Assembly: GCA_965178125.1 (NCBI GenBank)
Contig: OZ237745.1
Span: forward strand, 124,001 to 188,000
Direction: 5' to 3'
DNA from: Bilabrum cf. latius
Lineage: Eukaryota
DNA length: 64,000 nt
The first letter of the stretch is position 1, and every line of letters begins with the position of its first letter. The notes below the pieces were generated by a model. The model made no database searches, was not told where the DNA came from, and worked only from the letters and a program-made list of their open reading frames with translations. A program made the translations under genes and the position numbers. Positions 1 to 64,000 of this stretch are shown here, in pieces.

Positions 1-930
1 TGGTCCCCGATGATCCTCCTGATCGTGTCGTGCGTCTTCTTGATCTCCGCCTGGTTCTTGGAGTTGATGCCCTCGGCCTCCCGCGACTGCCTCCGGGCGT
101 CCTCGAGCTCCTTCTCCCTCTGGATCAGCTGGGTCTTCACCTTCTCCAGCTCGTCCCGCAGCCGCTCCGTCCGCTTCGACTCCCTCTGCTCTTCGTCCTC
201 CTTGGACCTCACCTGCGCCTGAAGCTCGGCCACCCGGTCCTTGAGCTCCCTGCCCTTGGACTTGCGCTGCTCAAGGCGCTGCAGCAGCTCGTCCGCGCGC
301 TTACGCTCGTACTCTGCCTGCGCGGAAGCCTCTTCGAACTGCCGCGTGGCCTGGTCGCGCGCCGCAATCACGTCCTCCAGCGTCGTGTCTTCCCCTAGGA
401 GGCCAGTGTACCGGTCGACGAGCATCTTGAGGCTGTCGATTTCTGTCTGGAGCTTCTGCGTCACCGCAGAGGCGGCCTCTTCCTTCTGGTTGGCGCCTTC
501 AATCATCGCATGAGCCTTTTCTACCTGCTTGCGCAGCTCCTAGATGGTTGCATCGTCGTCTTCGCTAAGCTTCATCGCGGAAGCTACCTGTGCAGCGTTT
601 CGCTTCATCTCTGAGCTCATTTCTTTCACTTTCTTCACCAAGCGTCTCTCGTTTTCATGTGACTGCGCCAACCATAGTATTGAAGCACAACACGACCAGC
701 ATGTTCAAGGCATGCGTTTGACGATGTGCAACCATCGACTTTCTTGTACACAACAATCTCACCTTTTTCAGTGCTTCGTGCAATTTCACGTACTCTGAAC
801 GGAAGCTTTCAAGTGTTTTATCACCAACCATACTTTCCAAGACCTCCTAGAAGTCCTTTTCTAGAGCCTCGAAGGCCTCGGCATCCTCATCAAAATCCCC
901 GTCCATGGCATGAGCGTCTTTGCTCTCCAT
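1..930 (-). CDS. CFAP58: Cilia- and flagella-associated protein 58 (CCDC147), 5' part; gene runs off the window start
   Basis: ATG at 930 (alternative 906). Exon 1 reads ...EAFEALEKDF*EVLESMVGDKTLESFRSEYVKLHEALKK, then a GT-AG intron at 663-762, then SHENERRLVKKVKEM...ASAMKLSEDDDATI*ELRKQVEKA. This matches the CFAP58 N-terminal pattern (ERDFQ.VL..L.GDKSLE.FR.EY..LH...KKS..NE.RL). In-frame TAG at 847-849 and 540-542. Confidence 0.88.
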
Positions 931-1139
931 GCCGCCTAGTGCTGCCATTCGCACCGCTCAGGTGGTGATAATAATACGTTCCTATGCTACCGGTCAGCAA
1001 GAAGTACCGGTTCTTTCCGAGAAACTTGCGCTTGATCCAAAAGTCGAAAGGTCCGTTGGTGGTGTTTGTTGCGTGTGGTTTGCTGATTCGGAGCCATCCG
1101 CCGAAGCGAGCGCGGCTAGTCTCCCCCAATATCGCAAAG

Positions 1140-4100
1140 ATGCGAACTACTATCGCCACAAGCATTATACCGAGCATAATAATTATTTATTTTCTTTTGG
1201 ATCACGGCAAATCCCATGTCAATGTGGTGGATTAGGTGCTGAATCAGGGTGAACATCCACAGCTCAGAATCTCAGAGGTATCGTCGGGCCAAAGCCAAGC
1301 TCCGTCTTGGTTTGAGATTCTGAATTTCGTTCCAGGGGTGAATATAGCATTAGATTCCTGCAGCTTCGCAATTTCCCACTCTAGTTCTGGTGTCGCCGCT
1401 CGATTCGACATCCTGCAAGCGGCAACCCCCCTTCGACCAGGTACCGCGGCTGTGGTGCATGCAGGCACAGCAAGAGGGTTCATAGGCGCGCAAATAGGAT
1501 CTGGTTGGGTGCATGAGTCAATGTCATCCCTACACGTATCACAGCAAGTCGTTGACTTTACGCAGTACGAGCGAGCAGACGGCGGCCCTTCCACGCAAGA
1601 CACGGCTGTACCAGCGTTCGACTTGCGACCAATTGATGGCTCGGACTCCGTGGGTATCCAAATAAGCTGCCAAAGTACCCTAATAGGCAGAGAACTAAAG
1701 CCAATCGCGGCAAGCGTGGTGTTGGCCCCGTCGGACTGGCAGGCTTCCAACACCACTGGTCCATCGCCGCCGATGGAAGTGCGTTCTCTTGACACTGCAG
1801 GAATATCACTCGGCTACGAACTTGACTCTCCTTATGGCACTGATGTGCGGGATTTTGGTACCATGCCATCCGTTGCACAATCCACGGTCGGTGTGCGCGG
1901 GGCAAGGCGCTCTGCCGCTGTCGCTGCACTTGTACCTAGTGACGCACGTGCAAGCTTGCCTGGCGGAAGCAACGCAGCAGATCCGAGCGGTTCTATTGGA
2001 TCGCCGGGCATCGGCATCGTAAGCGCACTGAATGGAGCCTCAGTGAATTCTAATTTTCGGGTCTGGGGCTAGCACGACGATGCGGCCCTCGCCGGTGGAG
2101 TGGTGGGCGGGCACCTGCTCCTGTCACGGAGTGGGCGAGAGGACTTTGACGGCTACAACTCAAATGCGCCAGGACTGGAGGCGAATTCAACCGGTGGAAT
2201 CCTGCGCTGGGACGGCTTACTAGAGGAGGCCTTCCTGGTAGAGCCGCCCCGCGCCGCCGGAAACGCTTCTATGACACGCGCTTGGCGAGTCCATGAAAGC
2301 GCCTAGACTGCCGCGTGGATCGCAACAGACCCTGCAAGTAGTGCCACCGCGTCCAACGCAAGCCAAGCTATTAGACTTCAACCCGCTCCCGGCAGCATGG
2401 ACCCCTCCTCCCCTGAACCCTTGATTCTGGGGGAGGTCCTCGGGCAGGTCGCTATCAGCGCGTGGACGCCTGAGACGGGCCGGGAGCTCTTCTCCATCGA
2501 CACGAGGGAGTATGACCTTTCAGATGGGGATGTCTCCGACGGTGCGCCTGTAGAACCAGGCCCTGGGCGTCAGGGGCTGCAGCTCGTCGGTGATTTGTGG
2601 CCAGGGAGAGAGGGCAGCGCGCCTCTGGACATGGTGGTGGCCTGGAGCGGACTGGGGTACGATGCAGCCAGGCGGTGGAGGCGAACTAAAGATGGATTTT
2701 TGGTCGCGGGACAGGTGCAGCAGGAGCGCGAGGTGTCCGCTGATGCGAGGCGCCACGTAGCGTTCCTGACAGCGCTGCAGCCGGTGCATCGGGCTGCACC
2801 CACACCGTGTGGGGCGGCCTTAAACGCTAGCACTGCATCCAACGGCACATAGCAAGCAATTCTGTGCCAGAGCAATGCTCAGTATGAGCGCGAGATATTC
2901 GTCTGGGACCCCTCCCATCCAGATCCCCTGGCTCGAGCACCGGTGGCCCTGCGATCATTGGACGGGTCCTTTGTCACACCTAGGGCGCCCAACGCAACAA
3001 GCCGGTATCCCACGCACCCGACTGGTCTCCGAGTAGTCGCTCGATTTAGACCACCCCCGCGAGAGGCCTCATCGGGGCACGCGTCGCGAGTGTGGCAGGG
3101 CGAGGAGGCCAGGGATGACCTGGTCTTGTACTCGGCTGGAACATCGACGCATGGGAGGGAGCTGTTTGCCTTTGATCCGGCAGCAGGTGCTAGCTGCGTT
3201 GTGGTGGACCTTTTGGCGGGGCCTGGATCGTCCCATGCATAGCAGCCCACGGCGCTGGACCCCTTCGGGCGACGGATCGTGCTGACGGCTCTGGTCAACC
3301 CAGCTGACGAGCAGGAGAGCATCGTGCTGCTGGAGTTTTCCCAAAGGCCTGGATGCTCGTCGCAGCCGCCTGACGGCTCCACGGACATGGCCGTGCCTGG
3401 ACCCAGCATGCTGCAGCGGGCAGGTGCCTGGGCTGTCGTGCCTGCAGCAAGCGACCGCAGCTCGGTGGGACTGGCTGCACCGGGTGGATTCACGGTAGCC
3501 TTTGCCCAGACGCTGCTCTTCGTGGATGCGGACCATTCGCACGGCGAGGAGCTGTGGAGAGCCCCCCTATCTGTCCTCACCGTGCAGGCCCTCCGGTCAA
3601 GCGGCGCTGGGCCCGCCGGAAGGGTCACTGACCTGGAGCCGGGGCCCGCGTCCTCGCACCCTGCGCAGTTCGCGATCGCAGAGCCAGACGTGGCAGTGTT
3701 TACGGCTGCCACGAGCTCCCGTGGGCGAGAGCTCTGGGTCATGGTGGGCGGAGAATCTCCTCGGGTTCTCTTCGAGGCGGTCCCTGGGCCGGGGTCCAGC
3801 GAGGTATCGATCATTTCTGCGTGGAGAGGGCACCTCATGCTGAGCGCGTGGGACGGGGAGAGCAGGGGGTTGTTCGCAATCCCGAGGGGCTAGGGCCAGC
3901 GGTGGATCGGCAGCCCTGTGCAAGCCCAGCGATTCAGCAGCGCGAGGACGGATGCATCGCACGAGCGTGCCATGCTGCCAAGGTGCTCACACGGCACGAA
4001 GCCCCTCCCTGGTCCGTATGGCCCGCGAGATGCTAGCTTGGGCCAGTCCGCTCGACACGGCGATCGAATCGTGTCGTTCGGCCAGGTCACGTGCGGTGAC

Positions 4101-7100
4101 CTGCTGCTTCCGTCGGGCGACGAGGTGGAGGAATCCATGTCGCAAGGGAGGCTGCTCGAGTTTGGGGCCGCAGTGGCCTGCATGAGACAGCAGCCAGCAG
4201 GCATAGACTGGGCCACTTCATCGATGGCAGGCGAAGAACGGGACGCTCTAGTGCGGTAGCGAATCGCCCTGGACGCGGAGCCTACTCTCGCGGTGGGTGT
4301 CCCAGGAGCGGGCAGTCTGGGCGAGGGCGAAGCCCAAGTGTGGGTGTCACAGCGTGGCTCGGGCGCAGGACGAGCCCGACACATACCGGAATCGAGCTAT
4401 CGGCGCGTTGCTAGACTGGTAGATTCTGGGGTAGGCCCAGGAGGCGGCCTGGGACGGGTCTTGGCGGCATCCAGGATACCGCTGCCATTCAGCGCACGTG
4501 CTTCAACTGCATCATTCAACCCAGCAGGGACCTCAAGTTTTGGACGAGTGCAGGGCATTGCCGCGGCGTGGCGCTCCGGACTAGTTGCTGCGGCTGCATT
4601 GGGTCCACTGCCAACTGGGGTTTCGAACGGAACATCCGCTAATGTGTCTAGCAGCTCCGGCACCGGCGCTAGCAGCAACACCACTGCTGCAGGGCAAGGC
4701 GGCGCACTGCCCTGGCATGCGGGCACTGTTGCCGTCTTTCTGCAAAGTCGAGACTCGTAGTGGATGTTCCGCCAGAGGCTGCGCCCACCTGTGGCGGTAA
4801 GGCAGGAGCTCGAAGCCAGGCACTTCGCGAGACTCCTTCATCCGGACGAGAAGTTCGGAGCAGCCCTCGCCGCCGACGGAGACCGAGGCAGGGTGGTTGT
4901 GGGGTGCCCCGGCGCGAGCTCAGGCGACGGTCGCGTGTTTGTTTTCGACTAGCCTGGGGGGCACACCTTTGTCCTATCAGCCACACTTGAACCCACCGGC
5001 CTGCTGCGGGAGGGAAGCAGCAACGGAGGGCACCCAGTCCTGTTCGGGCAGTCCGTTGCATTGTCGTTTGCGGTACCCGGCTAGCACTGGGCGGTGCCAG
5101 CAGGAAGTGGCGCTCCAGTCGCGCAGTCCCTGGATTCGTGGAGCCCAGAGGCAGGTCCACGAGAGATGGAGAGGAGGCAGAGGGCCGGTCGGGTGCTTGC
5201 GATCGGTGCCCCGGGGGCGCTCGGCAGCAAAGGGGCAGCCGTCGTGCAGGTCGAGGCCATTGCAGCGCGTGGTACGTGGTCGCAAATCACGCCAAGCACG
5301 TTGTACTCAGACCCCGATGGCACTCCCGGTGACTGGCTAGGTGCATCAGTCGACGTGCTTGGATCGATTCTCGCGGCAGGGGCACCTGGGCACAGGCAAA
5401 TCGAGTCCACGAGTTTGAATGCGTCCAGCAGTTAGGTAACTGACTCTAGGAGAACCGGAGCAGCGCTGGTATTTACCCGGGGCGATCCTGGCGGTAGCGG
5501 CGCCATTGGAGCAGGGAGGCCGCATCGGCTGCAGCACGGGGAGTCGCTGCACGGTGCGATGGTAGGAGCTAGTGTGTCACTGGTGGCTGCCCATGTGGAT
5601 CCTAGAGGAGCGCGCTGGGAACTATACGCAACTTCAAGCGATCGGCACTATGAAGTCATCGTGGGTGGAGGTGGAAGTCATGCTGGAGCGCTGTTTGGCC
5701 CTGCGCGGCGTCTGCTCAACGGCACCCTGACGAGCACATCGGTGCGTTCCAGCGACGGGGGTGGCTTGCGCGTTTACACATGCATGGAACAAAGATCTGC
5801 GCAGAAATGGGGCGCTTCAGGCGCGTGCAGCTTTCTGAGGCAGATACGGCCGGCCGACACCGGTGCAGGGACGCAGATGGACCAGGCTGGCGGGCAACCC
5901 CACGAAGCAGCCGTGCCGTCCACGGCTTCTGCAGGCTCTGCGTTCGGGACCCCCCTGCACCGAATCGTCACCGCGCACGGACAATCCATTTCATCCGGGG
6001 CTGTTGCGGTGCACCGGTGCCCCACAGCCCCGTGTGAGCCAGGCGCCTTCGAGTCGGTGGGCTGCACTGTGTTTCGAGACAGGGTGTGCTCCCCCTGTTC
6101 TAGGGGGCATTGCCCGAGAGGGACGTTTCAGGAGGCGGGATGTACCGTATTTCGAGACAGGCAGTGCCGCGCCTGCAACGAGACTTGTCCAATCGGCAGC
6201 TATCTATACAGGCGATGCGGACCAGTTTCTGCAGCTGTGTGCCTGCCTTGCAACGGGCCACTCCAGTGCCCGCCAGCCAACTTCACCGCACTTGATGCCT
6301 TTCCATCGCCCACTGGTCGCGACTCAAGGAGGCCGTGGGCCGGGAAGAGAGACGCCTCTGGTAGCTAGGAGGAGGCGTGCGACCGGAACGGGTTGTGCAA
6401 CCGACGGTTTCCGTCCATCTCGACTGGCCAGACCCGCCTGGGCCACGGGTCGTACCCACGGCCGGTGCACTCCATTGTGCTGCCCGACGGGAGCGCTCTT
6501 CCGGAGGGCAGGGGTTTAAGCGGCCAGCGCTCGATGCCCGCCGATTTGGATGCAGAGCAGAAAGCAGGTACGGAGCCGATAGGACGCACAGCATTCCCCC
6601 GGGTGCAGGCTCTGGTGGCTCTGCACAACGAGACGGGTGGCAGCCACTGGACACACAGCTGGGAGGGTGCCATAGCTGCCGGGATGGATCCGTGCACGCC
6701 GGCAGGATCCACCGCAACGTCGCGCTGGGAAGGTGTCAGCTGCATGGAGGAGAAGGGAGCTGAGAAACCCACCGTGACTGGCCTGCTCCTGGGGTCCAGA
6801 GGCCTCGTGGGCAGGGTGAGTTGGGCGAGGCTGCTGCGGCACATGGATGGGTTGGAAGCGATGGACGTGTCACGTAATAACCTGTTCGGGTCCGCCCCAA
6901 GCCTGGATGACCTTGCCCCTGTCGGTGCGACGCTAAGGCGGCTCGACCTGTCGCACACTGCAATGGCTGGGCGGCTGCCCGTGTACGAGGACAGCGAGGC
7001 TCAGCATGGGGCTCTCCTGTGGGACGTGCTGCCTCGATTAGAGTTCCTTAGCCTGTGCGGCATGGACCTCTTGGAGGCTCCAAGAGGGGGGACAGTCGAG

Positions 7101-7172
7101 GTGGGTCGTCTGCCGAGCAGGGTGCAGCTTGCTGTGGAGAAGGGTGACTTGCGGATCGACTGCGTGCGATGA
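1140..7172 (+). CDS. 2010-aa secreted/surface mosaic protein: ELWxxDGT-like repeats, FG-GAP-like repeats, TNFR-like Cys-rich repeats, C-terminal LRR
   Basis: One uninterrupted frame from ATG 1140 (hydrophobic leader MRTTIATSIIPSIIIIYFLL) to TGA 7170-7172 with 12 in-frame TAG (1233, 2070, 2304, 2850, 3240, 3891, 4257, 4758, 4950, 5082, 5433, 6366) and no TAA/TGA. Motifs: GRELF/GEELWR/GRELWV with PGPxSS; FGAAVA, FGAALA..VVVGCPG, LGASVDV..LAAGAPG; CxPGxFxxxGCTVFRDRxC x2; ALVALHNETGG..W..WEGVSC..DVSRNNLFG. Confidence 0.8.
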
Positions 7173-8611: not shown

Positions 8612-8812
8612 GTCGCTGGATGGTGGCGCGCGAGTTGATACAGAAAGTACTAGTACGATGTGACCATATTCTTGTCTAAACGCACCCATTACTGCATCAT
8701 GACCCGCCACTGTTCATAGCAGGCCAGTCTGCGATCGGGCCATCGCCTCTGTGGGAGGCAAGGCAAGCTAGCTCGAGCCACTGGAGTAGGAATAGATCCA
8801 TGTGCCCGCTGC

Positions 8813-11758
8813 TCACAGCTCATCGTGCTCCTCCCCCTCCTCTTCCTCTTCCTCCTCTTCGATCTCCTCCTCCTCTTCCTCCTCCTCCTCCTCGTCAGGC
8901 ACCTCGATCTCGGGCTCGAGGTCCAGCGAGTCCAGCTGCATGCCGGAGCGCATGAGCCTGTAGGCGCGCTGGGCAAACTTGCGGGGGTCATCCATGGAGA
9001 AGCCAGAGTTGAGCAGCGCCGAGTCGAAGAGCATGGCGGCGTAGTCCTTGGTGTCCTCGGACTCGTCTCCCTCCTCGACCTTGGCCAGCAGCTTGCTCAC
9101 GATGGGGTGCCTCGGGTTGATCTCCATCGTCTTCTTGGAGATGAGGAACTTGGCGCGGTCCGGGTCCGCGAATGCCTGGGAGCGCATGATCCGCTCCATG
9201 TTGGCGCTGTAGCCGTACTGCCCGGTCACAAGGACGGCGGGGGTCTCTGCCAGGCGGTTGGAGATGGTCACCTTCTCGATCTTGTCGCCCAGCACGTCTT
9301 TGAGCCAGTCCGCGAGCGGCTGGAACCTGGAGCGGTAGGCGTCTGCCCTCCTCTGCTCGATGTCGTCCTCGTCCCCGAAGCGCAGGCCCTCCTTGGAGAC
9401 GGACTGCAGCCTGAATCCGTCGTACTCGGCCAGGTTCTGCACGGCGTACTCGTCCATGGGGTCCGTCATGTACAGCACCTCGATGCCCTTGGCCTTGAAG
9501 CGCTCCAAGAAGGGGGAGTCCTTGATGGCGTCCAGGGACTCGCCCGCCAGGTAGTAGATGTTCGACTGGCTCTCCTTCATGTCGGCCACGTAGTCGTCCA
9601 GCGAGCGCAGGTCATCCTCGCCGTCGCTCTTGGTGGTGCGGTACCGCAGCAGCTTGCTGAGCTTGGAGCGGTTGGAGGCGTCCTCCACAATGCCCAGCTT
9701 GAGGTTCTTGCCGAAGACCTTGTAGAACTCCATGAACCGGTCGATCTTCTTGGCCTTGTCGGCGTCCTTCTCGTCCTCGTCCTCGGCGTCCTCGGACTCC
9801 TCCTCCTCGGGCTTGTCCTCCTCTTCCTCGTTCTCGCGCTCCTCTCTGAGCTTCTTGCTCTCCTTGGCCAGGCGCCGCAGCAGCTCCAGCACCTTCCGGG
9901 TCAGCTTCTTGCCGATCACGCGCAGCAGCTTGTGCTGCTGCAGGGTCTCGCGGGACACGTTCAGGGGCAGATCGTCAGAGTCCACCACGCCGCGCACAAA
10001 GTTCAGGTACCGGGGCAGGAACGAGTCGAACTCGTCGCTGATGAGCACCTTGCGCACGTACAGGCGCACGCCCTTCTGCTTCCCGTAGTAGTCCTCGTAG
10101 AGGTCGTAGGGGGCGCGCTTGGGCAGGTACAGGAGCGCCTTGAAGTCGATCTCGCCCTCGGCCGCGAAGTGGGACCAACCCAGCGGGTCCTCGTAGTCGC
10201 TCGAGACTGCCTTGTAGAAGGACTTGTACTCGTCCTCCGTGACGTCCTCCTTGTTCCTCGTCCAGATGGCTTGCTGGTCGTTCATCTGCACCCACTCCTC
10301 CACGGTGCGGGTCTCCTTCTTGGTCTTGGGCTTCTCCTCCTCCTCGTCTTCGGCCTCTACCTCCTCGTCGTCCTCCTCCCCCTCCTTCGTCTCCTCGGCA
10401 TCGGCCTCGCTCTCCTCGTCCTCGATGGGCACGTCCACGGTCTCGGACCTCGTCTTCTTGAGGAAGATGGGGAACTGGATGAACTCCGAGTAGCGCTTCA
10501 CCAGCTCCTCGAGCCGGTTGGCAGTCGAGTACTCGGCGGCGTCCTCCTTGAGGAACAGAGTGATCTCGGTGCCCCTGCCCAGGGTGTTCCCGCGGGGGTC
10601 CTCCGCCACGCTGAAGGTGCCATCAGCCATGGACTCCCACACCACCTGGTCGTCCTCGTTGTTCTTCGTGGCCACGCGCACGCGGTCCGCAACCAGGTAC
10701 ACGGAGTAGAAACCGACACCGAACTGGCCGATCTGGTTCACGTCTGCTCCCTGGGCCATTGCCTCGAGGAACTGGGCCGTGCCCGACCGGGCCACGGTGC
10801 CCAGGTTCTGGATGACGTCCTGCTTGGTCATGCCGACACCGCGGTCCCTGATGGTCAGCGTCTTTGCCTCGTTGTCGAAGGAGATGCGGATTTCGAGCTC
10901 CTGGTCCTCGCCCTCGCCCAGCGCGTCCGCGTCTGCCAGGGAGAGGAAGCGGATCTTGTCGAGGGCATCCGATGCGTTCGAGATGATCTCGCGGAGGAAG
11001 ATCTCCTTCTTGGTGTACAGAGAGTTGATGATGATGTCCATGAGGCGGGACACCTCGGCCTGGAACTCGTACGTCTCGAGGCTCTCCTCCAGGGCCTCCT
11101 CGTCCTCGCTCGAGAAGCCCGGGGCGGCTGCCGCCTCGACCTCCTCCTCGACTTCCTCAAACTCCTCGCCATCGCCGCTGCGAGGTAGCAAGTTGGTATC
11201 ATGGAAAAAATTGGAGGTAGCCGGCGTATTGGCAATTGCTTTTGACGCACAACGCGTTGGAGGGGGGCCACTTGTCTAGTTGGCTTTGACGTGGAACGGA
11301 GCAGATTCCACCCGGCCGAATCCGACAAGGATCCAGGGTGGTGTAGTCAAATAACAAGCATTACGGGACAAAACATACAACATTTACTACGACTGTGCCA
11401 CAATACAACAGTGTGGAAGCCCGATAAAGCTGCTATCCAACACGACGGTTGCCAGCTGGAAGCGGCACCTGTTGGGTTGGCGATTGCATCTCTCACCCGT
11501 CATCTGCAGCAATCTCCTCAACGGAATCATCTTCAGGCGTATCCTGAGCAAGCGCTCCGCTGGACATGATAGCCGCTGCGACAAAATAAGAGGAGCACCA
11601 CCAGGGTTCGTCGGCGCCACGTGGATCCACACCTCTTGATAAGGACACACGGGCTACTGGGTTCATCTTTGCAGAAACTTACTCGGCGCGACTACGAGAT
11701 ACAACCCAAGGGCTGCCAAGAGGGCCATGCCCACTAGTTTACGGCCTCGGACCGCCAT
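8813..11758 (-). CDS. HSP90B1: Endoplasmin / GRP94 (ER HSP90)
   Basis: YEFQAEVSRLMDIIINSLY, IFLREIISNASDALDKIR, IGQFGVGFYS and a C-terminal HDEL. Signal peptide MAVRGRKLVGMALLAALGLYLVV lies on exon 1 (11758-11683). Introns at 11576-11682 and 11178-11496. TGA stop; no in-frame TAG. Confidence 0.96.
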
Positions 11759-12251
11759 GTCTTAAACAATCGAAGTGCTGTGTCGACGTGGGCCAATCAC
11801 TTGTAACGTGTGGTTCACCATTTAACATGATTTTTTGGTGAAACTGGAAACGCCATGATCCATCGACTGTCACGACTGCTCGCGCCTCATAGCATAATGT
11901 AGCTGATATTCAATTTTTGATCCATACAACAACCTAAGTTATAGTTGGCCGGTACGCTTTGGTGCAGGCCAAAGGGATTGCAGCCCAGGTGCAACTGCAC
12001 GTATGCAACAGCATCTGTCGGGTTCGCACGGGCGAGGCCTGCTTCAAATCGGTAATATTCTACATGCATTCGATACGTCGTGGATCGAGTCTGCAAATCG
12101 GGAGATTGGCCCGTCAGAGTCCTCGGTGATGTAAGAGTATGCGTTTTCAGTCTTAATTCTGCACGGAATAAACCTAAGAATTATAAACGCAAAAGAAAAT
12201 CCTATCGTTTATTCAAATCGCAGCTTGGGCGGCCGCCCGTGCGCTGCTACA

Positions 12252-14705
12252 ATGGCATCACGGCTACAGGTTGCGTCTTTGGAAGTCCGCAGGTCTGCTT
12301 CAATGGACGCAGCTGCCGCTTCCGAAACAGGCACAAGTTCTAGCAGTGACTGCGAGGATGACGCTTTGGTAAATCCAGGGCGCTATTGGGTCCAACGGCG
12401 CGTGAAGCTCATTCGGGATGTGGCGACACGATTCAAAGGCCGAGCGACCAGCTCAGCAGAGAATCAGAAGGGCGGCTCCCGCCGGAAAGGCCCCGGTCGC
12501 AACCCACACCCAGCCAGGGAACAGATTAACACCGGCATGATGACGGCCTTGCAGGCTGCCATTCCGTCGCAGCAGGACGATCTCCTCGCCGCGTCCGAGC
12601 GGCTGCCCGGCGTGGCCCGGGCGTGTGAGCGGCTGCTCATGGCAGAGAGGGCCAGCGGGCGACCAACGCTGGGCTGGGCCCCCGGGGTGGAGGACGGGCC
12701 GGGGATCGGGAGGGGGCTGGGCTCCAGGGGCATTCGCGCTGCAGTGGAGGCGCAGAGGGTCGCGGTGGAAGCGGCAGGTGCTGCAGTGCGGGAGAACAGG
12801 GCGATCGGGCAGAGGGTCGTCGGGGCTGCTCTGGGGGAGGGATCCGCGTGGGACCAGCGGTGCGCAGACGCAGTGCTTGCTTTGCTGCGGGGTGCAGATA
12901 GTCGTTGTGGTAGCGGTCTGGCAAGTAGTCACGGCGATAGTGAGGATGATGATGGTGGCGCCTCTGCCGGGGAGGACGGGCTTGGCGCTTCGTCCCGAGG
13001 CAGCAGACCGGGCGGTGGTAGAAGTGCCCGGCGAGCGCGGCAGGTAGGGTATGCCGTGCCAGAGCATGCGCAAGCCGTCCGAGGAAGTGGCACCGTTAGT
13101 AGAGCAGCGCGCGGGAATGTACGGCAAAGGCGCTTTCGTCAAGATGCTTCGGCCTCGGCAGCAGTCGATGCGCACCGCGCGACAACACCGAGCGCACAGA
13201 CAGCAGCAGCACCTCCTCGCAGCAGTAGCAGCAGCAGCAGCAGCCAGGTTGCACACCCCAGCGCTGGTCGCGCGCAGGGAAGCACCCAATAGTCATCGAC
13301 CGCTGCAACCATCGCTCCCATCCCGCAGCTGCCCCCGCCCGCCCGCTCCCTGCCAGGCCCCCTAGTGGCGGCCAGCGGCGGCGAAGTGATTGTCGAGCTA
13401 GAGGCGTGGGTGCCTGGGGGGAAACGCGGCACTGGGAGGCAGCGGATCGTGGCCTTGGGGAGCAGCTCCATCGGGGCTATTCTGGGTGCATTGCATTGCA
13501 GCACCCTCAGCAAGCAGGCTGTGCTCTCTGCGTGCCTGCGGGGGGACGGGGCTGCAGCTTTGGGACTCGGTGGGTCGATGCTTGGGGAAGGGAGCATGGC
13601 GGGATGCAGCGCATCGTTCTGGGGTGCTCGCAGCACACTTGAGAGCATGAAGGTGGGCGGCGAGGAGAGCAGTGGCCCAAGGGCAATCGGCGATGCACGG
13701 CTCGGCGAGCTCAGCTAGGCCCTGCAGAAGGGCGTGCAGTGGGCCCTGGGCGCTGAGGGCACCAAGCAGCTGGTCGATGGCGATGGTGATGGCAATGGCG
13801 ATGGCGATGGCGATGGCGGGGGCGGGGGCAGGGGCGCGTGCACCGCTGCCAGCGACTGGGTGATGGTTGTGGAAGGCGTCTGCTTCGGTGAGTCGAGACG
13901 GTCTGCACGAGCCGCGTCAAGCTCCGGCCCGCAGGTGGTTGACCTTTGGCCACCCGGACATGGGACCAACGATGGAGATCCCGCAGCGGATAAAAACGAA
14001 CAGGGGGGCCAAGAGGCCTCTCCTCGAGGTGGCAGTGAAGAGGTCTCCAGCCCGCATCGAGGGTCGAACGGCGGGCCAGGTCTGGCGAGCCAGGCCGCGG
14101 TCGGGCACCAGGACGAGGTCTTGGCGTTCCATGAGGCCGGGTGGAGCTGCCCAGTGCCCCAGGGAGCAGGGGGCCTGATCCGATCCCAGAAAGGCACGCG
14201 CACCGCGCTACGGGAGCTGTCTGTGGTGCCGGGCAAGGCCTACGTGGCAGAGCACGCCGGGGGCAGCTGTGTGCACTGCATTGCAGTTGTGGACGTGCGG
14301 GCCGTGTCCTCGTGTGATCCCCAGTGGCAGTGCGAGTACCCTTTCGTGAGGGCCCGGTGGAGGGACCACAACCCGCCCTCGCGATCCAGGGAGGCCCTCT
14401 CCGCCCGCCCTCAGGGGATGGCGAACCACGGGGGGAAGTGTTCCTTGGGCGGATCGTGCCCGCGGCCTGCGTGCCTGGCTGTCGTGAGCGAGTGGGGCAA
14501 GGAGGCCAGGCTGTGCTGCGCGCGCTGCTGGCTGCAGGGCAGGAGCTCCCCGCGAAAGGGGGATGAATCTTTGGATGGGGCCAGCTCCGGGGCGGCGGAG
14601 TCGCCAGAGGAGTTGTCATTGTGTGACGAGTGGGGGAAGGGTTCCATGGTGCTGCCGCTGTCGGCAGGTCTTCTGCAAGGTTCGGACGCGCGATTGCACT
14701 GCTGA
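12252..14705 (+). CDS. SNAPC3: snRNA-activating protein complex subunit 3 (SNAP50)-like
   Basis: Single frame across TAG 13290 and 13716 to a TGA. C-terminal motifs MVVEGVCF, LRELSVVPGKAYVAEHAGGSCVHCIAVVDVR, YPF and C..C..PA...LCCARCW resemble the SNAP50 zinc-finger domain. The rest is divergent and low-complexity. Confidence 0.65.
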
Positions 14706-15284: not shown

Positions 15285-15860
15285 TTAGGTTGATACTCTT
15301 GCCTTCTTTTCGTCTGGATCTAGCGGTGATGAACCATTCTTGCTGCCAGCACCCGTGCCGCTGCCGCTATCCTATTCAGAGCTGGCGCTCTCCTCCCGTT
15401 CTCGCTTCATTCCCAAGGCCTGTATCGACTGCTACCCAGGCTTGGCAATCGAATTACTTGCTGGTGAAGTTGGTCCTACATGCTTCGCACCCTCGGTGTG
15501 CAGAGGCCCCACGAGCTGAGATTCTGCCGCTCGCTGGCTAGCCGCCTTGGATGAGTGCACTGGAGAAGTGCTGCTACTGGTGGAAAATATTCTTTTGCTA
15601 ATTGATACTGAGCCAGTACTGCCTAATTTGGCTGATTTTGTCGAAATAATACCGCGAATCGCACTTGAATAGCCTTCCAAAGTCGAGACGGGTGTGGCCC
15701 CTCCAACTGATGCCAGTAGCGACGATTCGAAGCGGAATATCCGCTGCTCAACGCGATGCAGCTCCGTCAAAATGTCTGAACTTATCTAGATCCTGTCGTT
15801 CTCGCTGCACATGGCCAGGTTTGCAAATATTGAAATGCCGCAGGCGCGGTGAGGCATCAT
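15285..15860 (-). CDS. Eaf6/MEAF6-like histone acetyltransferase complex subunit
   Basis: ELHRVEQRIFRFESSLL...LEGYSS...KRIFSTSSSTSP resembles the Eaf6 core. Reads through TAG 15786, 15432 and 15372 and ends ...DEKKARVST-TAA (15285-15287). Start position uncertain. Confidence 0.6.
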
Positions 15861-15925
15861 AAGGCAAGCCGCTGAATAGATCGGATCCGCTGAGTCTCGC
15901 CAGTAAACCACTCTCCCGAGATAAT

Positions 15926-17114: not shown

Positions 17115-17276
17115 AGAAGCAGACAACAACGAGTAGCATTAAGGCTAATCAGATCACGACGGACAACCCACGGGAAAGAAAGCCAACTGCCAGTGGGCGG
17201 GGGCAGCCACTGGCAGCGATTTGATCTCCTTCTCTAGCACATCGGGGAACCTGTCAGATTCCACTTTCTCGTCAGA

Positions 17277-18559: not shown

Positions 18560-18594
<35 letters not shown>

Positions 18595-22187: not shown

Positions 22188-22413
22188 CGAAAGTATGGCT
22201 GGCAAGTTGATCTGACTACTTCCGCACCGGCCAGACGTGGCTGGATCATGTGGTGAGGGTGCACCACACTGTGGCATCACCAATTGGTTCCGATTCTTGA
22301 ATCAAAAATCTTGATTCAACCCCACACAGGGCCTTTCTGTTGATACGGACAATTGTTTGGAGTACATTTGAATCGCTGCACTTGCGCCTGCTTGCGCCAT
22401 CATTTGCGCCCGA

Positions 22414-39944: not shown

Positions 39945-40226
39945 TGGCTAAGTCACCTGGCCCGTGTTGATGCGGACTTGATCAATTGGTGTGAAGGTTT
40001 TGGGAATCGCAATCCTGCCAGGACCTTGTCCCTTGTGCAACGCTACTGTGGATCAATCGAGATTTTCCCAGCACCGCACGAATGCGCGGCGCCGAAGTGG
40101 AATGCTGCCCCAACGGCTGCTGCACTGATTCGTCCTGCTGTGGGCGTCCTGTGTCACTCGCGACAGATCCTATTCTCCTGCTGAGAAACTTTACTATACC
40201 GAAAGGGGTGCAGATATCCTACAAGC

Positions 40227-46037: not shown

Positions 46038-46335
46038 TGGAGTTGCACTTTCTTTGATTCCAGTCGTTGTTCGTCATTAGTTCGAACGAATTTACTGCAC
46101 TGCTCAATTAAATATCACCAAATATTGTCCTCGTTCCAGATGTGGTTTCGTGATGAGCGAGCGCTTTTGAGTTGAGTCCATGAAAATATCAGACCCACCA
46201 AATATTGCTGCGCACGATCAAATCGACGATTAACAAGCTAGTGCCTAGTGCGAAGTGACAGTCAATACCCCTACTCCATCAGTGCCTAGCTGTACTTTTG
46301 TTTTCCTCTGGCGCGCTGAAGGCTTTTTTCCCCGC

Positions 46336-51286: not shown

Positions 51287-51582
51287 GGATACGCCGCGCC
51301 AGAAACTAGTTTTGAGCTGGATGCGATGGTCTTGATGAGTACTTTGTCATTAACAGCTTGTTCCAATAGCGATCCATCGTCCTTTTCGAGGTAACGCGCA
51401 CTATCTGGTTTCCGGATCCGATCCGGCGAAGGTCCAGTCTGGAAGCACTTTTGCCAGATCAGCGATCCCTTTGAGAAGGTTGAGCATTTGCCTACAATTC
51501 ACGGTGGCGTTGTAAGGCGAGGCAACTCCCGCAATGCACCTGATGCCGACCGCCAACGCCCCCAATACAATGCCTCTATGCA

Positions 51583-52329
51583 GAAACCCAATAGGAACTG
51601 GGCCGTCAATGGGTACAAGCTGTGGAGGGAGCGCTCAACCCGGATCGCACGACCATCGTGAGACATTGGATCGAGGATGCTACTACTAGCTTGCGCGAGC
51701 CCGTTGCAGCCTCACGCGCGGCGTGTGCCATTCGCATGCTGCAGGGGTTTCACAGATCACTGCTGAACGTATCTAGCATCAGTACATGCGCAAGTGCAGT
51801 CTTGATGGCTCTGGTGGTGGCAGGAGATGCAGGCAGATGCATCGTGGTGCTGCAGGCGCTGCTGGAGTGGGAACAAATTGCACCGCCTGCACTGGGCACT
51901 CCTGCCCGACCGCCGAGTCGCTAGTGGTCCGCTGGCGGTGCCTAGCACTGGATGGGTGTGCACGACCTGGCCCGCAAGCTGGCTAGGGACAAGAGGGGGC
52001 GGGACGGGTGGCGCGGGGCCGTGCTGCGGTGTGATGCGCTGGTGGAGCTGGAGGCGAAGAGGAGACGGGGCCGCATGGCTGTGTGGCGGCGGGCGATGGA
52101 GGCGAAGAGGGACGCTGGTAAGGTGTTCCAGGCGGCAAGAGATGGTCGTCCGTTGGAGCTGGGAAAGCGGCTGAGGCTTGGAGTGCTGGCTGGGGGCCTG
52201 GATGCGAAGGGGTAGGTGGATGATGGGGCAGGTGGCACGCGGTTGGTGAGTCCGTTGGAGGCGGCGCGGCTGGGCGGGCATGAGGAGTGCGTGAAGCTGC
52301 TTACTCAGTACGCCAAGAGTCACCGCTAA
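51583..52329 (+). CDS. Short paralog or fragment of the C-terminal third of the LRR-ankyrin gene; 5' end unresolved
   Basis: AACAIRML and AGDAGRCIVVLQALLE parallel AACILRML and AGDAGGCVVVLQALLE in the 46336-49149 gene. TAG at 51922, 51943 and 52213; TAA at 52327-52329. No clear in-frame ATG at the 5' end (possible acceptor tatgcag near 51582). Confidence 0.5.
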
Positions 52330-56319: not shown

Positions 56320-59300
56320 TCAGATCTCGTGTATCTCCGGCTTACTCACAGCCCCCTACGCGCCTGGCTGCGACGGGTACACCAGCCTGTTCAAGTCACG
56401 GCGCCTGTCGCCGCCCCCTTGGTCGTGGTCTTCATCGTCGTTGCGCCTGAGGTGGTCCTCGTGGCCAGCACCACCCTCTTCGCCGGATGTCTTGGACTTG
56501 GACTGTCTCTTCTTTGCCTTGCTAGATTTTTTGGCCTTCTTTGACTTGTTGGCCTTCTTAAGCTGCTTGGATGAGCTTCCCTTGGACTGGCTGGTGGAGC
56601 TGCCTTGCTGGCTTGCCCTCCCAAGTGCCCGCTGTGCGTCTCGCCTCGTGGCGTGGTACTCCAGCTCATCTTCGTCATGTTGCTCCGAGTCAATGCCGGC
56701 TGCGTACAACGCCCCTTTCTCAGTCCGCCTTCTGGTCCTGCGCGCTGGTTCACCGGCGCCACCACCATCCGGGCCACCACCATCCGGGCCACCACCATCC
56801 GGGCCACCACCATCCGGGCCACCACCATCCGGGCCACCACCATCCGGGCCACCACCATCCGGGCCACCACCATCCGGGCCACCGCCGCTGGTTGATCCAC
56901 CACTGCCAAGAGCCGCAGTGCCACCTTGTCCCTGCAACGACCTCGAGTCACCATGGCTAGGGATAGCAACGGGGCCGCGCAAGCTGGCCATAAGCTGGGA
57001 AAAGTCCCCCACTGGCAGCAGATTAATCATCCAGGGCATCTGGCCTGGGTTCTGGTGGAAGCGCCCGACTTCGTTGCGGCCTACGAGCTGCCATCTAGTC
57101 CTACCCGACCGGGCAACGACTGATCCTCGCATCCAGCCCCTGAACATCTCCAGCGGCATCAGGAGAGGCGGTTCCCGCAGGATAGGCGACGGGACGACAA
57201 CACCGACGGGGTATCTCGTTGCTCCTACTTGCCTGAACACTGCTAGACACGCATCGGCTGCTATTGAAGCTTTGTGCAGGGGTCGTGTGCTGACGACAAG
57301 CCCTGCGTCAACTACCTGCAGTATATCGACTTGAGGGTGAACACTCCCCCCTGCGACAGGTGCGCCCATGCTGCCACTTGCGACAGGTGCGCCCATGCTG
57401 CCACCCGCGACAGGTGCGCCCATGCTGCCACCCGCGACAGGTGCACTCGTCCCACCAGTGCCCACAGATGTTCCACCAGTGCCTACAGATGTTCCACGAG
57501 CACCCCCATCTATGGCCAATTCACCAGCTCCTGGCGGCGCAGAGGCTTGCCCTTCCGCACGAGACGCGGTCGGGCTTCTGCTTGAACTGGCCAGCTGTGT
57601 CTCGGCGCTTGAATCAGATTGCCGTTGCGCACCAGCAACGGACTGTTCGTGCATCATGGATTTCCCTTGCTGCACCATTCGAACCCATGCAGGACCAACA
57701 AACTCGTTGCAGACAGCACATCCGGCCAAATTCAGGGGCAGCGGCGGTGAGTGGCACACCTCCCAGCCGTCTGCTAAAATAACCGAGAGCGTTCTCACGA
57801 TGAAACTCTGACTCTCCATTTCTGCCACGCTGACCTGTCTGGATGCAACCGGACTGGAATTGGGCTGGTCCGAGATGCCAAGACACCCAGCTGCGGCCAA
57901 TCCCCACACGTAACCGAGGGGCTCTGCCCAGCACTCGCCAGCAGTCGTGACACGAACTCCGTGCTCACTAGCAGTCTCCTCCCGCCAACCCGACCCCGAC
58001 TCCGCCATTGAATTGGGAGACTCGCGCCCATCGAACGGATTGGTCACTCCGTGCTCACTAGCAGTCTCCTCCCGCCAACCCGACCCCGACTCCGCCATTG
58101 AATCGGGAGACTCGCGCCCATCGAACGGATCGGTCACTCCGTGCTCACTAGCAGTCTCCTCCCGCCAACCCGACTCCGCCATTGAATCGGGAGACTCGCG
58201 CCCATCGAATGGATTGGTAAGACCAGATGCAATCGATGCGTCATCGAGCGGATCCATCCCGCCGCGTGCATCTGTGTGGCCAGACCCAGACCATTCCCCC
58301 CATTCCCCGGCATTCATGGTTGCCCTCAGGAGACGCTCCGCCTCGTCAGCGGCGGCCTGCGCCCGAATGGCGTCAGCCTCTCGTTCGATGGCTTCCTCTT
58401 GCTCCTCGATCCAAGTCGCATTCATGATTGAGACTCCAGTGGCTCCCTCTCCGGGTGCATGCAAAGACGGGGTCGAAGGGCCGCTGGAGGGTGGCCCCGA
58501 GCTCGAGCTGGAGGCTGGCCCCGAGCTCGAGCTGGAGCTGGAGGGTGGCGGGGGCCAGTAGGTGCCTGCGGGCGACGAGCCGGTGGGGGCCACGCCCATG
58601 CTGCTGCCCGCCATAGCCGATCCGTGGTCAATTCCCTATTCGTACTCGTCCTCGTCCTCGTCTTCATCGCCGTCCGATATTGCGGAGGCCCCGCCCGCCC
58701 CTGCAACCTCACCGGACGCTCCCCCGCTGGCCTAGCCCACAGCATCCACGCCCGCGGGTGCCACAACCGACTCGACCAGCCGGACAGCCCTGTCGATCGG
58801 TCCAAGCGGCCACCTGCCGGGCAGCATATGGGCCATGAGTCTCCTCAGGATCCCAGCGCTGACAGGCACCAGGTCCTGGCGTATCGCCTCGAGGCTCCAG
58901 GCAGCCGCACCGATGACGTCCAGCACGGCCAGTCCCTCTGGCGTGATGCCGGCGATGCCGCGGGCCTCCTTGGCGACTGCAGCCAATGTGTTGCCTGTTG
59001 GGTTGCCTGCGGGGCGCATGGAACATAAAAAGAAGAGCGGGGACCACAACGATCGGGGATGCGCCGCACCGAGGGAGATCTCTCAATCCACAACGACTCC
59101 AGGCGGTCAATGGCCTCCATGGCTTCGGCGCGCTTTCCTCACCGTTCATTTCAAGAGCGTCTGGCGCGACGTTTGCGACATGCAGAAGCGCTTCCGCTGC
59201 TTGGTCCTGCTCTTGCTCGGTGAAAGCCAGTACGAAGTCCCTCGCCACATCGGCCTAGCTGGCGCTCCTGCGCAGCGTGGCCCTGCCCTCCATCTCCATC

Positions 59301-60130: not shown

Positions 60131-62201
60131 TCATGTAGATCCCTGGCTGGAGCTCTGCCGCATGGCGGCCGCCGCCAGGGGTGAAAGAGGTCCCCGTCGC
60201 AGCGCCGCCATCCCGCCGTGACCGGCCCCCGCCCCTTGTCCCTCCCCTTCACCGGCACCACCTCCATCCCCATCCCCGCCCGCCCCTCCAAGGCCCACCT
60301 CCGCGAGCAAAACATCTGCCATGCGTGCCACCAGCCGCAGGGGCAGCCCCATGATGGCGTCCTCTGAGCCAGCCGTGCCTCGCAGGAAAGGCCTCAGGTC
60401 TGGGTGCTCCACCACGATGGCACCGCTCGATTTTAGCACGCTGGGTGTGCTGCTGGATGACGATGACGATGACGAAGCACTGCCACTTCCGCTAGAGGAA
60501 GCAGATGACGAAGAAGTAGCAGCTGCTTTGGGAGCAGGCAGCGCCACTCCACTTCCACTACCGCTGGTGCCACCGCTGCCACCGCTGGTGCCCGCCCCAC
60601 CGCGCGGAGACAGGCGCCTGCCCCCCGCCGCAGCCCTCTCAATCGTGTCCTCGGGAATGGGCGCATATCTCACCGAGCACACGTCCAGCCCAAGCACCCT
60701 CTTCCCTGTGAGCGAGTGCACGAGGCACAGCCCGCTCACAGTGCGCGCCACCGCGCCAGAGTACCCCCGGATGAATGCACGCGCCTCCGACTCATCTGCC
60801 GGTTTCTCATGGACCTCCAGAGCGGAACCAGCGGCACCGCGCACTAACTCCGAAGCGTCGGGCAGGCTCTTCTCCCAGCCCTTCCTGTCGAAGCAGGCCT
60901 CGCTTGTGGGGGCACTCTTGAGCGCGTCCGGGTCCACAGCCACAGCCACAGCCGCGCCGGCCGCCGCCTCGTCACCGGCAAGACCGGTACCCGCTTCATT
61001 TGTCCCGTGCCCCTCCCCATCCGGCAGCGCGGGCAGGGCCAGGGGCCACCGCGCCGGCTCGCCCAGGCTGCTCATCCAGCACCAGGACAGGAGGCCCTGG
61101 GGCCCACCGCTGGGGACGGGGCCGCTGCCGGTTGCAACCGCGAGTTCGGCCCCGCCGGCCCCACCGTCTGCCGCGGTGGCAGGGGGAAAGCTGTGACTGC
61201 GGCCGACAGCTGCGGAACCGGCCGCGGCGCCCAATCCGCTCTGCTTGCTGCCCGTGTCCGCGCCAGTGACACCCGGCGGGGCGCTCGATGTCCGGCCCAG
61301 CGATTCAGAATCAGAACTACCAGCGGCAGCGGGGGCTCCCGACGACCCCAACCTGGGGGCAGTAGCCGGCGGGGCACCGCTACCGACAGAGGGGGGCTTG
61401 GGCTTCGAGGCACCTGTCCCCGAGCCCGAGCCGGAGCCCGAGCCGGAGGAGTCCGCGGGGGGGAGGGACCCTTTCTCGGCCCCGTCCTTGATTCCGGGAG
61501 GAGCGAGCACCACCTGGTCTGCCGTAAGGATGAAAACGCCCTTCTCTCTATGCTCCGGCCGTGCGAGCATTTGGCGGAGGGCAGGGACGGCGAGTAGTGC
61601 GTCGGCCTTTGCCATCGCGACGGAGGCGACAAGGCCGAGGACCGCCTTAGCCTCCTCCTGGGGCGAATCGCCCCATGAGCCGCGGAGCGACGCAGCTTTC
61701 TCATCAATGTCTGGCGATATTGCAAGGGCTACTTCGGCGCCAGCGCGCTCGGCAACAGCCCTGCGGTGTGCGGAGGATGAGCCCAGCACGAAAGGTACCG
61801 GTAAGCTCAGCGTGTGCGTGACTGGACCACTGATATGAACCCCCCTGCGATAAAATAATGTAACTATGACTTATCAGGCTCATTGCTTGTGGCAAAATTA
61901 CCAGCATTCTCAGGGTAGCAAGACGTATGCAGCACACTCACTCCATGGGATGCCTTTTCTTTTGCAAAGCGGAGCTAATGGGAGACAGTGTGTCTGATGG
62001 AGACCGAACAAGCCCTCGGCCGCCCGGTCCCCCCCCAAGTCGCTCTCTGAGGTCCAACCGAAGCGGCTTCGGCGGACTGCTGTGGTCGCTCGAGCGGTGT
62101 CTGCCGGCCAGAGATGAAGACTGGCGCAGCTTAGGGGCGGCACCAGACTCTGATGATGTAGATTGGCTAGAACCACTTGCTAATCTGCTTGGAACACTCA
62201 T
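60131..62201 (-). CDS. Maf family nucleoside triphosphate pyrophosphatase with large low-complexity insertions
   Basis: VLGSSSAHRR, SPDIDEKA, AMAKADA, ILTADQVV, HEKP..ESEARAFIRGYSG, SSGAIVVEHP, AIMGLP. Upstream exon 62201-61942; intron 61845-61941. TGA stop; no TAG. Confidence 0.85.
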
Positions 62202-62461
62202 GGTAGCAGTATTTCTGGACGATTGCTTGGCGAAGACATTTAGTAACGTGTAAAAATAGAGAATATCATACTTCGTCCATTGGTGCAACTACGCCTACGA
62301 ACGAATTTCCTGCTTTCGCTACGGTGGAAGTGTCGATTTAAGACTTATAAATCAGCAAAATCTTTGGTTCTGCTACGGTATCCAGTTCTCTGTACGACTG
62401 ATAACCACTTTTCGCTCAATCGTCGAATCGAACAGGTGCCTAGGCCGCCGTATACGCGACT

Positions 62462-64000
62462 ATGCTTCGAAAACGTGATATTATCGGAAGCTCCAAACGA
62501 GGTTTATCACTATCCAAAAGCAGTGGGGGGTCGGGTATCCTGCGCAAGAGGGGACCATCAAGACTGGTCGCTGCAAAGAGCCACGGCGTGGCCTCAAACG
62601 CCCCGCTTGTTCGTGCTAGAGTAAAGCCCGCCCGCCAAGCTTCAAGCGTAGAGTCATCAACAACCAGTGCCAGCGTGGGGAGCGCCGTTCGTGAAACAGC
62701 AGACGGACGTGGGCGTCATGGTCGGGGTTTTGGCTCTCGCAAACGGCAAAGAACTCCTGCAGCCAGCGCGGTCGAGCCTGACGAAGTACAAGCCCTGGTT
62801 GATTCGCTATAGTCATCTATATCTGGGGCCTCCCTGCAACGAGAGGCTTCTTCTGTCGCGGTGAGGCCAAACGAGCCATCGACGGATGGGTTGCAGTTGC
62901 GCTGCCATCATTGCGCCCAGTATCAGCTCGACTGTCTCTGACTCAACCCCGATTAAATCCAATGCCACCGCAGTTATAGCTCATTCAAAGGCTACCAAGC
63001 GCCGCTAAGTCTGCGTCCGGCCTGTCATCCGCCAATCCGTCGGAGCAGGACTCGCGGCACGTGGCGACTGCAGCGGCTCAGGCTCTCGCACTCATGCGGC
63101 GCAGCTTGCTAGGGCCGGTGAGGCGCGCTGCCGCCTCTTTTCACGCGCTGCAGGCCGCTTCGCACGAAGCACAGAAGCTCAAGTCGGCTTGGGACGCGGC
63201 TAAATCAGCCGCCGAGGCCAGCCACGGTCACGGTGGTGGAGCAGATTCTGGCGCTGCTGCCGCGGACCAGTCGGGAGGACGCACCGCAGCACTCGGCAGT
63301 ACCGGAGTTGATTCATCCGATGCAGCGCTCATACAGAAGAAGATCGCAGCAGATCCCACAGTCAGTGCGGCCCGCGCCCGCGCAATCGAGGCTCGCCGAA
63401 GGGCGAGGAGGCACCACGGCATGCTGCAGCAGGCGCTGGCCGCGCGCCGGTCGGCAGCCTTCGCCGTCGAACCAGTCGTGGAAGCCATCCTTCGAGCGGC
63501 TGCCTGGCTGCTTCCCGCGGCACTGAGGGCTGGGCACGACTGCATGGACCAGACCGCAGCTGCTGCAGGTCAGAGTGCGGTTAGAGCGAGCTGGCTGCAG
63601 ATCGCGCTGTCGCTGCTGCTGGCGTGCTACCACCTGGCCATCAGCTGCGCCCCGCTAGTTTGCCTGCAGAAGCGCCGGGGCCTCCGTGTGTTGGCAGGGC
63701 TGCTGCCTCTGATTGGTCCTGCTGTAGGGGCCCTCGAGGAGCGGCGCTGCAGCGTGACCCGGACAGTTGGTGCGGCAGTGCGGGGCGGTGGCAAGAGACG
63801 AAGGGTAGAAGATGCACCCACTGGTGCCGCCGATGATTCGAGGCTAGCCAGCACCTAGACCAGCAGCACCAGTAGCACCGGCAGCGGTGGTAAGGCAGCT
63901 GCGATAGACTGCACGGAGCAAGACTCCCCGGAAGCCTACTCCCGCAGTGCCGCAAGGCTGCTCGCACCTGCTGCAGCCTCGCTCTCTCGTGCAATGGGCG
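62462..64000 (+). CDS. Uncharacterised Ala-rich helical protein, 5' part; runs off the window end
   Basis: ATG 62462 and probable intron 62861-62973. TAG at 62810, 62977 and 63856; frame open to 64000. Confidence 0.55.

Follow-up and report, generated by a model that had tools for sequence, protein, structure and literature searches.

The 64,000-nucleotide stretch considered here (positions 124,001 to 188,000 of contig OZ237745.1 in assembly GCA_965178125.1, labelled Bilabrum cf. latius; hereafter the window, numbered from its first letter) is very probably nuclear DNA of a flagellate with few introns in which the codon UAG stands for glutamine (Gln) and UAA and UGA are stops; the host is most likely a stramenopile near the bicosoecids. 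GC content is 61% over the window, and eukaryotic genes, named here from Pfam or PDB matches, are tightly packed on both strands, with scarce introns of 87-450 bases that carry GT..AG ends in spliced contigs. That TAG means Gln was the claim of an earlier note made from the letters of the window alone, which matched the code to NCBI table 15; table 15 does read TAG as Q, and four TAG of a gene for an ARO-like armadillo protein lie on Gln columns that are near-invariant in 46 orthologues.

The tally of the earlier note, about 90 in-frame TAG in about 17 genes with no in-frame TAA or TGA, was reproduced closely by a recount, which arrived at 94 TAG in 17 genes after smaller open reading frames (ORFs) and exons had been added. 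In 15 gene segments comprising 14,178 codons, TAG occurs in frame 78 times and TAA and TGA not at all, whereas the +1 and +2 frames of the same DNA contain 98 and 93 TAG, 41 and 40 TAA, and 194 and 243 TGA. In-frame TAG therefore runs at about four fifths of its off-frame rate, and the other two stops are absent. Added to the 78 were the rest of the ARO-like gene (2), exon 2 of IFT172 (1), the CFAP58 fragment (1) and the ORFs at 15285-15974 (3), 16224-17114 (3), 51544-52329 (4) and 62803-63999 (2). Some TAG close to ORF starts may belong to 5' untranslated regions (codon 41 of 17115-22187, codon 5 of 46234-49149), and the zero for in-frame TAA and TGA is partly built in, since those codons delimited the ORFs. 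Frames that stay open for 800-2065 codons are nevertheless unexpected given a combined TAA and TGA density of 0.0147 per position, and six genes are open all the way between their first and last Pfam domains, with TGA as the first stop beyond. With TAG read as sense, 12, 16, 8 and 8 TAG fall in single frames at 975-7172, 28220-32806, 22372-24801 and 49277-51346, the same numbers that had been given as examples before. The conserved genes said to be affected do contain TAG, with one each in IFT172 and CFAP58 and six in a TYW fusion gene.

ORF length as such was dropped as evidence. Reading TGA as sense yields 82 ORFs of at least 300 amino acids and reading TAG as sense yields 44, since no other stop triplet is as frequent as TGA in DNA this rich in GC. 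Long open frames at 8703-11354 (plus strand) and 41142-44717 (minus strand) run antisense to the genes for GRP94 and IFT172, which are high in GC at third codon positions (GC3), and these frames are spurious. One spurious antisense frame holds 20 TAG, so TAG-rich open frames can arise by chance. As ORF length is uninformative, the case for a sense TAG was built on homology and RNA.

Homology speaks most directly in the ARO-like gene, whose parts are as follows.

33884-35463, minus strand: ARO-like armadillo gene with a coding sequence of 331 codons, seven TAG and the stop TAA at 33935-33933
35463-35327, 35225-34737 and 34369-33884, minus strand: exons of the ARO-like gene, seen in RNA in contigs of the public runs X6 and X7
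35097-35095, 35091-35089, 34902-34900 and 34896-34894, minus strand: TAG codons on conserved Gln columns

With exon 2 as query and X placed at each TAG, 46 orthologues of about 290 amino acids were aligned at 48-63% identity. The four TAG on conserved columns are residues 67, 69, 132 and 134 of the spliced protein, where Gln is found in 44, 44, 38 and 46 of the 46 orthologues. Gln reaches at least 80% in 8 of the 268 aligned columns, and four of the six aligned TAG sit on these eight (hypergeometric P = 4.9e-6). None of the six lies where the orthologues conserve a different residue. At the eight Gln columns the gene itself uses TAG four times, CAG three times and CAA once. A further TAG, at residue 4, lies outside the alignment. 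Judged from these orthologues, UAG is taken to encode Gln.

The remaining aligned TAG sites are less telling about the amino acid. ORF 28220-32806 shares 41% identity over 528 amino acids with the protein P0382 in an alignment that crosses five TAG positions, a similarity by which this ORF is judged to be a real gene. Armadillo-repeat homology likewise spans TAG in 22411-24801 in an alignment to PDB chains, and in the 809-residue armadillo protein one TAG matches Q in designed consensus armadillo repeats and K in another design. Exon 2 of IFT172 matches the Chlamydomonas IFT172 PDB chain 8bd7_S with E 3e-40. A search for shorter proteins of relatives with ORF 28220-32806 gave two distant homologues at 39-41% identity. 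By these alignments the TAG sites outside the ARO-like gene would neither support Gln nor contradict it; as they lie on variable columns, the assignment of Gln is left to one gene.

The transcripts of three genes were followed in public data, with four runs compared over window positions 22300-42200. Run X1 (DNA) has no other letters over 22300-28304 and 33297-42200 and no intron-like joints. Contigs of X5, X6 and X7, which come from two other studies, jump introns with GT..AG (or CT..AC) ends, and eight splice joints are common to the three; since such joints are not seen in X1, these runs are taken to hold spliced RNA. Eleven TAG are unchanged in spliced contigs, with no other letters. Seven of them are in the ARO-like gene, all three exons of which are covered by spliced contigs of X6 and X7 with no other letters. 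Three are the first TAG of a p34 adaptin-binding-like gene, at the start of its last exon, and one lies in IFT172 exon 2 (40708-40710); both stretches occur in spliced contigs of three runs, again with no other letters. This excludes editing to CAG or splicing-out for most transcripts at the 11 sites, and the check for TAG in RNA that the earlier note had proposed turned out in its favour, in contigs and not in raw reads. Loose ends of the contigs have no match in the window except one of 15 bases. Identical sequence, as DNA or as spliced RNA, is present in runs of four studies under four organism labels, as seen over 17115-24801 and 22300-42200, and the spliced contigs show no differences. 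Either the four labels denote one organism, or the flagellate went unnoticed in the cultures or samples of others.

TAA and TGA, in turn, are terminators, as had also been claimed. The protein of GRP94, an endoplasmic reticulum (ER)-type HSP90, has HDEL directly before TGA, and the 98%-identical protein of a relative has an HDEL end too. In six of six genes with a Pfam domain near the C-terminus, TGA is the first stop of any kind after the domain. TAA ends three ORFs, with more TAA or TGA within 5 to 55 codons beyond each, and past the three terminal TAA the translation abounds in Cys, Trp and His in a way that the coding parts do not. Use of TAA in the manner of TAG would be expected to put about 20 of them in frame (from a CAA:CAG ratio of 102:387), compared with the 0 observed. 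No window gene has a homology-confirmed C-terminus that ends at TAA. A code with both UAA and UAG as Gln (UAR = Gln, table 6 type) was considered and rejected, with 0 TAA against 78 TAG in frame.

Within genes, TAG acts as an ordinary, weakly preferred Gln codon. The 567 Gln-type codons divide into 387 CAG, 102 CAA and 78 TAG. The base after an in-frame TAG is G in 29 cases, C in 26, A in 14 and T in 9, and the corresponding counts after CAG are 97, 88, 48 and 41, so that the two distributions are alike. TAG is absent from the segments of GC3 0.84-0.94 (GRP94, CDC20 and the last exon of IFT172), which are nearly free of CAA as well, and frequent in genes of GC3 0.62-0.70 (Spearman -0.62, P 0.014, 15 segments). 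The genes of the window form two GC3 classes, one of four well-conserved genes with 0.84-0.94 and CAA near nil (8813-11176, 26149-27558, 35700-38014 and 41235-46037) and one of 0.62-0.70 with all others. TAG use tracks this split.

A relative with the same kind of gene appears to be represented in public protein data. When the armadillo protein was compared with 1.84 billion representative proteins, two short proteins of a relative, at 82-83% identity, were among the 150 matches listed; nearly all of these 150 were other armadillo-repeat proteins at 23-39% identity and not orthologues. P0317 (68 amino acids, from a 1188-nt contig, 82%) starts right after window TAG 462, ends right before TAG 531 and has K in place of a third window TAG, and P0235 (193 amino acids) ends directly before a window CAG. 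Both may be pieces that standard-code gene calling has cut from a TAG-bearing gene, with some TAG common to the two organisms and some exchanged with CAG. Because the ORF fragments of the relative break at the same places, the code change probably predates the split from it (98% identity in GRP94, 82% in the armadillo protein). A scan of metagenome contigs with the armadillo protein found no relative in 52 pattern matches, and one with GRP94 yielded three loci at 41-54%, none of them close.

The best named GRP94 match is that of Cafeteria roenbergensis (63%), fourth among the best 120 of 8000 matches. In a FastTree tree of 47 GRP94 rows, the window and the 98% relative stand on a long branch beside a clade with Cafeteria (support 93). 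For the ARO-like protein, oomycetes supply the best named matches, at 60-61%. Halocafeteria seosinensis was rejected as the source, its genome having 47% GC (10.64898/2026.07.28.741278). As far as these single proteins indicate, the host is most likely a stramenopile near the bicosoecids, which fits the stramenopile-type host guessed in the earlier note.

Several observations weigh against this reading of code and host. The Gln assignment comes from one gene, and in that gene two further TAG fall on variable columns (residue 128 with H 18, N 7, S 5 and Q 5; residue 263 with K 15, R 13 and Q 3). The CFAP58 TAG column is variable (G, A, A, D), and the IFT172 TAG corresponds to P in the single Chlamydomonas chain. 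The TAG columns of ORF 28220-32806 show N, Y or gaps, with Y in both distant homologues, and K stands at one TAG of the armadillo protein in the relative and E at one TAG in a paralogue. The RNA evidence consists of assembled contigs, in which rare variants are lost and which show no protein. That X5, X6 and X7 are RNA is a guess, and X5 includes a DNA-like unspliced contig of 4.8 kb. The ends of P0317 and P0235, known as protein sequences, are stops by inference. Support for TAA as a terminator consists of composition and absence in frame. Finally, the tree support of 93 is below the star threshold, and the placement near Cafeteria is that of one protein.

A code of this kind would be explained by a tRNA-Gln with the anticodon CUA, one base from the usual CUG, that decodes UAG. 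Since C34 of this anticodon cannot pair with the last A of UAA, such a tRNA would read UAG and not UAA, and UAA would be kept as a stop. The release factor eRF1 would have become largely blind to UAG, with its recognition of UAA and UGA kept. Excerpts of PMC5304391 predict a tRNA(CUA) for such codes, cite the tRNA-Gln(CUA) of Tetrahymena as reading UAG and not UAA, and propose a change in the GTS motif of eRF1 (T32G) for the lost UAG recognition of Iotanema. ARAGORN found no tRNA genes in the window, and the eRF1 gene is not within it. Alternatively, UAG could be read as Gln by the ordinary tRNA-Gln(CUG) through first-position mispairing, with an eRF1 blind to UAG and no dedicated tRNA. Although tRNA-Gln is a known near-cognate reader of UAG under the standard code (PMC13192750, in excerpt), up to 16 UAG per gene, and seven in the 331 codons of the ARO-like gene, would need efficient decoding. 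Together with the prediction and the Tetrahymena precedent in PMC5304391, this makes decoding by the ordinary tRNA unlikely, and a dedicated tRNA-Gln(CUA) is preferred.

Less likely again is a UAG that is ambiguous in the way known from Condylostoma, karyorelict ciliates and Blastocrithidia, with Gln as its meaning within genes and termination in some contexts, for example near the 3' end. The last TAG of the ARO-like gene (34142-34140) would suit it, as it lies 7-13 residues before the ends of the orthologues and is followed by 68 low-complexity residues up to TAA, and TAG terminators elsewhere in the genome would be compatible with the data from the window. Directly after this TAG, however, the last armadillo helix goes on in frame with its conserved Asn and a hydrophobic residue, and no window gene requires a TAG terminator, TGA being the first stop after the C-terminal domain in all six genes mentioned above. 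A sense UAG with another amino acid, such as the Tyr, Glu, Lys or Leu of other variant nuclear codes, is highly improbable. Single TAG sites do align with Tyr (in the two distant homologues), Lys (in the close relative) or Glu (in the paralogue), each one base from TAG, but these disagreeing sites are single and variable, whereas at four TAG the column has Gln in 38-46 of 46 orthologues, and at no TAG is it conserved for anything else. Least probable of all, and contradicted already, is an untranslated TAG due to pseudogenes, unrecognised introns, RNA editing to CAG or assembly errors: most TAG do lie in weakly conserved or low-complexity protein parts, and no TAG occurs in the three genes that lead in GC3 and rank with the best conserved (GRP94, CDC20 and the last exon of IFT172), but frames are broken by TAG alone and never by TGA or TAA, though TGA outnumbers TAG 1.6-fold in the window, TAG stays intact in contigs spliced on both sides and in the DNA run X1 with no other letters, and it replaces an invariant Gln at four sites of an expressed, spliced gene, which also bears out the earlier verdict that this is not pseudogene decay.

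Apart from the ARO-like gene, the following features were found in the window.

3-704, minus strand: CFAP58 fragment that extends beyond the window edge, one in-frame TAG, matches to PDB CFAP58 chains with E 5e-20 to 6e-19
975-7172, plus strand: ORF of 2065 codons with weak FG-GAP, TNFR-Cys and LRR matches, 12 TAG, stop TGA
8813-11176, minus strand: ER-type HSP90 (GRP94), Pfam HSP90 with E 1e-199, no TAG, GC3 0.94, C-terminal HDEL followed by TGA
12135-14705, plus strand: ORF with a weak SNAPC3 match, two TAG, stop TGA
15285-15974: ORF with three TAG
16224-17114: ORF with three TAG
17277-22187, plus strand: TYW3-Kelch-TYW2 fusion, Pfam TYW3 8e-45 and TRM5-TYW2 9e-39, stop TGA
22411-24801, plus strand: armadillo-repeat protein, Pfam Arm 1e-36, eight TAG of which six lie within the repeat region, stop TGA
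26149-27558, minus strand: CDC20, no TAG, GC3 0.84, stop TGA
28220-32806, minus strand: ORF of 1528 codons with no Pfam family, 16 TAG, stop TGA
35700-38014, plus strand: 4-hydroxyphenylpyruvate dioxygenase, spliced, no TAG, GC3 0.93, stop TGA; introns 36011-36173 and 37007-37456, perhaps 35796-35943 too
38130-39944, plus strand: p34 adaptin-binding-like gene, Pfam Adaptin_binding, introns 38229-38319 and 38453-38539, stop TGA
38613, 38790, 38826, 39390 and 39846, plus strand: the five in-frame TAG of the p34 gene
40135-46037, plus strand: IFT172, introns 40411-40561 and 41050-41234, stop TGA
46234-49149, plus strand: leucine-rich-repeat protein, eight TAG, stop TGA
49277-51346, minus strand: coiled-coil protein, eight TAG, stop TAA
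51544-52329, plus strand: paralogue of the C-terminal module of 46234-49149, four TAG, stop TAA
52786-54705, plus strand: ORF of 639 codons with no Pfam family, five TAG, stop TGA
56320-59082, minus strand: ORF of 920 codons with internal repeats, three TAG, stop TGA
60131-61870, minus strand: Maf-like protein, no TAG, stop TGA
62803-63999: ORF with two TAG

Pfam and PDB matches also revealed an NmrA-like fragment and a CFA20-domain fragment, and the p34 protein had no matches in PDB. The GRP94 frame, 8813-11383, begins without an obvious signal peptide, and a first exon probably lies upstream, past an intron. The sole TAG of IFT172 is the one in exon 2, and its last exon of 1,601 codons is without TAG. 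The TYW gene unites wybutosine-synthesis enzymes, namely TYW3, a Kelch region and TYW2, in a single ORF of 1,636 codons, and its six TAG past the first Met each lie outside the domains that can be aligned to PDB chains. A similar fusion occurs in plants. Within ORF 28220-32806, a short GC-rich repeat in a Gly-Val run (28723-28756) has many loose ends and is covered about 6,900-fold in the DNA run, where its surroundings reach about 40-50; it is probably a microsatellite dispersed across the genome. In the same ORF, 16 differences from the window over 30992-32066 appear in several contigs, from the DNA run and one RNA-like run, which points to a second allele or a paralogue.

One C-terminal module recurs in three genes (48505-49137, 51733-52308 and 16821-17023). 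The first two copies are 91% identical over 571 bases and have two TAG in common, so that two of the four TAG in ORF 51544-52329 stand at positions matching those of its paralogue 46234-49149. The third copy, at 77% identity, has GAG (Glu) at one of the common TAG positions.

The code with UAG as Gln and with UAA and UGA as stops is itself known, being of the table 15 type; the lineage seems to be new for it. The precedents given in the earlier note, Iotanema spirale and a few ciliates, agree with the available excerpts of PMC11687900. The fornicate Iotanema spirale comes closest, as a non-ciliate flagellate in which UAG is Gln and UAA a stop, and for which excerpts of PMC5304391 also predict a tRNA-Gln(CUA) together with an altered eRF1. 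It differs in belonging to an unrelated supergroup, the Metamonada, in contrast to the likely stramenopile here, and its case, as described in those excerpts, was made from transcriptome data, compared with genomic DNA with introns and 61% GC in the present one. Protocruzia tuzeti and two phyllopharyngean lineages likewise have UAG as Gln and UAA and UGA as stops under table 15 (PMC11687900), and these excerpts name no stramenopile case. Unlike the present organism, ciliates change their code frequently and have special nuclear genomes. Codes with UAR as Gln (many ciliates, Hexamita, Streblomastix, ulvophycean green algae and Amoeboaphelidium) share the capture of a stop by Gln (PMC11687900) and probably a mutated anticodon of tRNA-Gln. 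In those codes UAA and UAG change jointly, whereas here TAA is found 0 times in frame and ends three genes. The uncultured rhizarian exLh belongs to the SAR assemblage too. In exLh (UAG = Leu) and in Scotinosphaera (UAG = Ser), UAG alone is reassigned and UAA is a stop, as here (PMC5304391 and PMC11687900, in excerpt), but the amino acids differ from the Gln that marks the conserved columns here.

Full-text literature searches, seen mostly as search listings, returned no nuclear stop-codon reassignment in a stramenopile, in keeping with the note's view that the code is undescribed there. A 2024 stramenopile review touches on the genetic code in a mitochondrial reference and nowhere else. Given the taxonomic distance to the known cases, the origin is probably independent. 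More likely than not, the window shows the first nuclear code change known in stramenopiles, an independent UAG = Gln code with UAA as a stop in a GC-rich relative of the bicosoecids, which would occur in at least two species and be old, though this is held with clearly less confidence than the code itself. Within the stramenopile reading, its age is argued from TAG making up about one seventh of all Gln codons and half of them in some genes.

Standard-code gene callers and databases fragment proteins of this kind, and the pieces of 68 and 193 amino acids from the relative are already public. Annotation, phylogenomic matrices and decontamination screens that include this organism would be wrong unless table 15 is applied. 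If the stramenopile origin is true, a GC-rich genome with this code would run contrary to models that invoke AT pressure or the disappearance of the stop codon, and it would test whether AT pressure is needed at all. Codes in which UAG and UAA differ in meaning are known from a handful of lineages (PMC5304391 and PMC11687900, in excerpt), and every further case helps to test why the pair is coupled as a rule. A free-living stramenopile flagellate that combines such a code with a compact, GC-rich genome would provide a non-ciliate system in which the solutions found by tRNA-Gln(CUA) and eRF1 may be compared.

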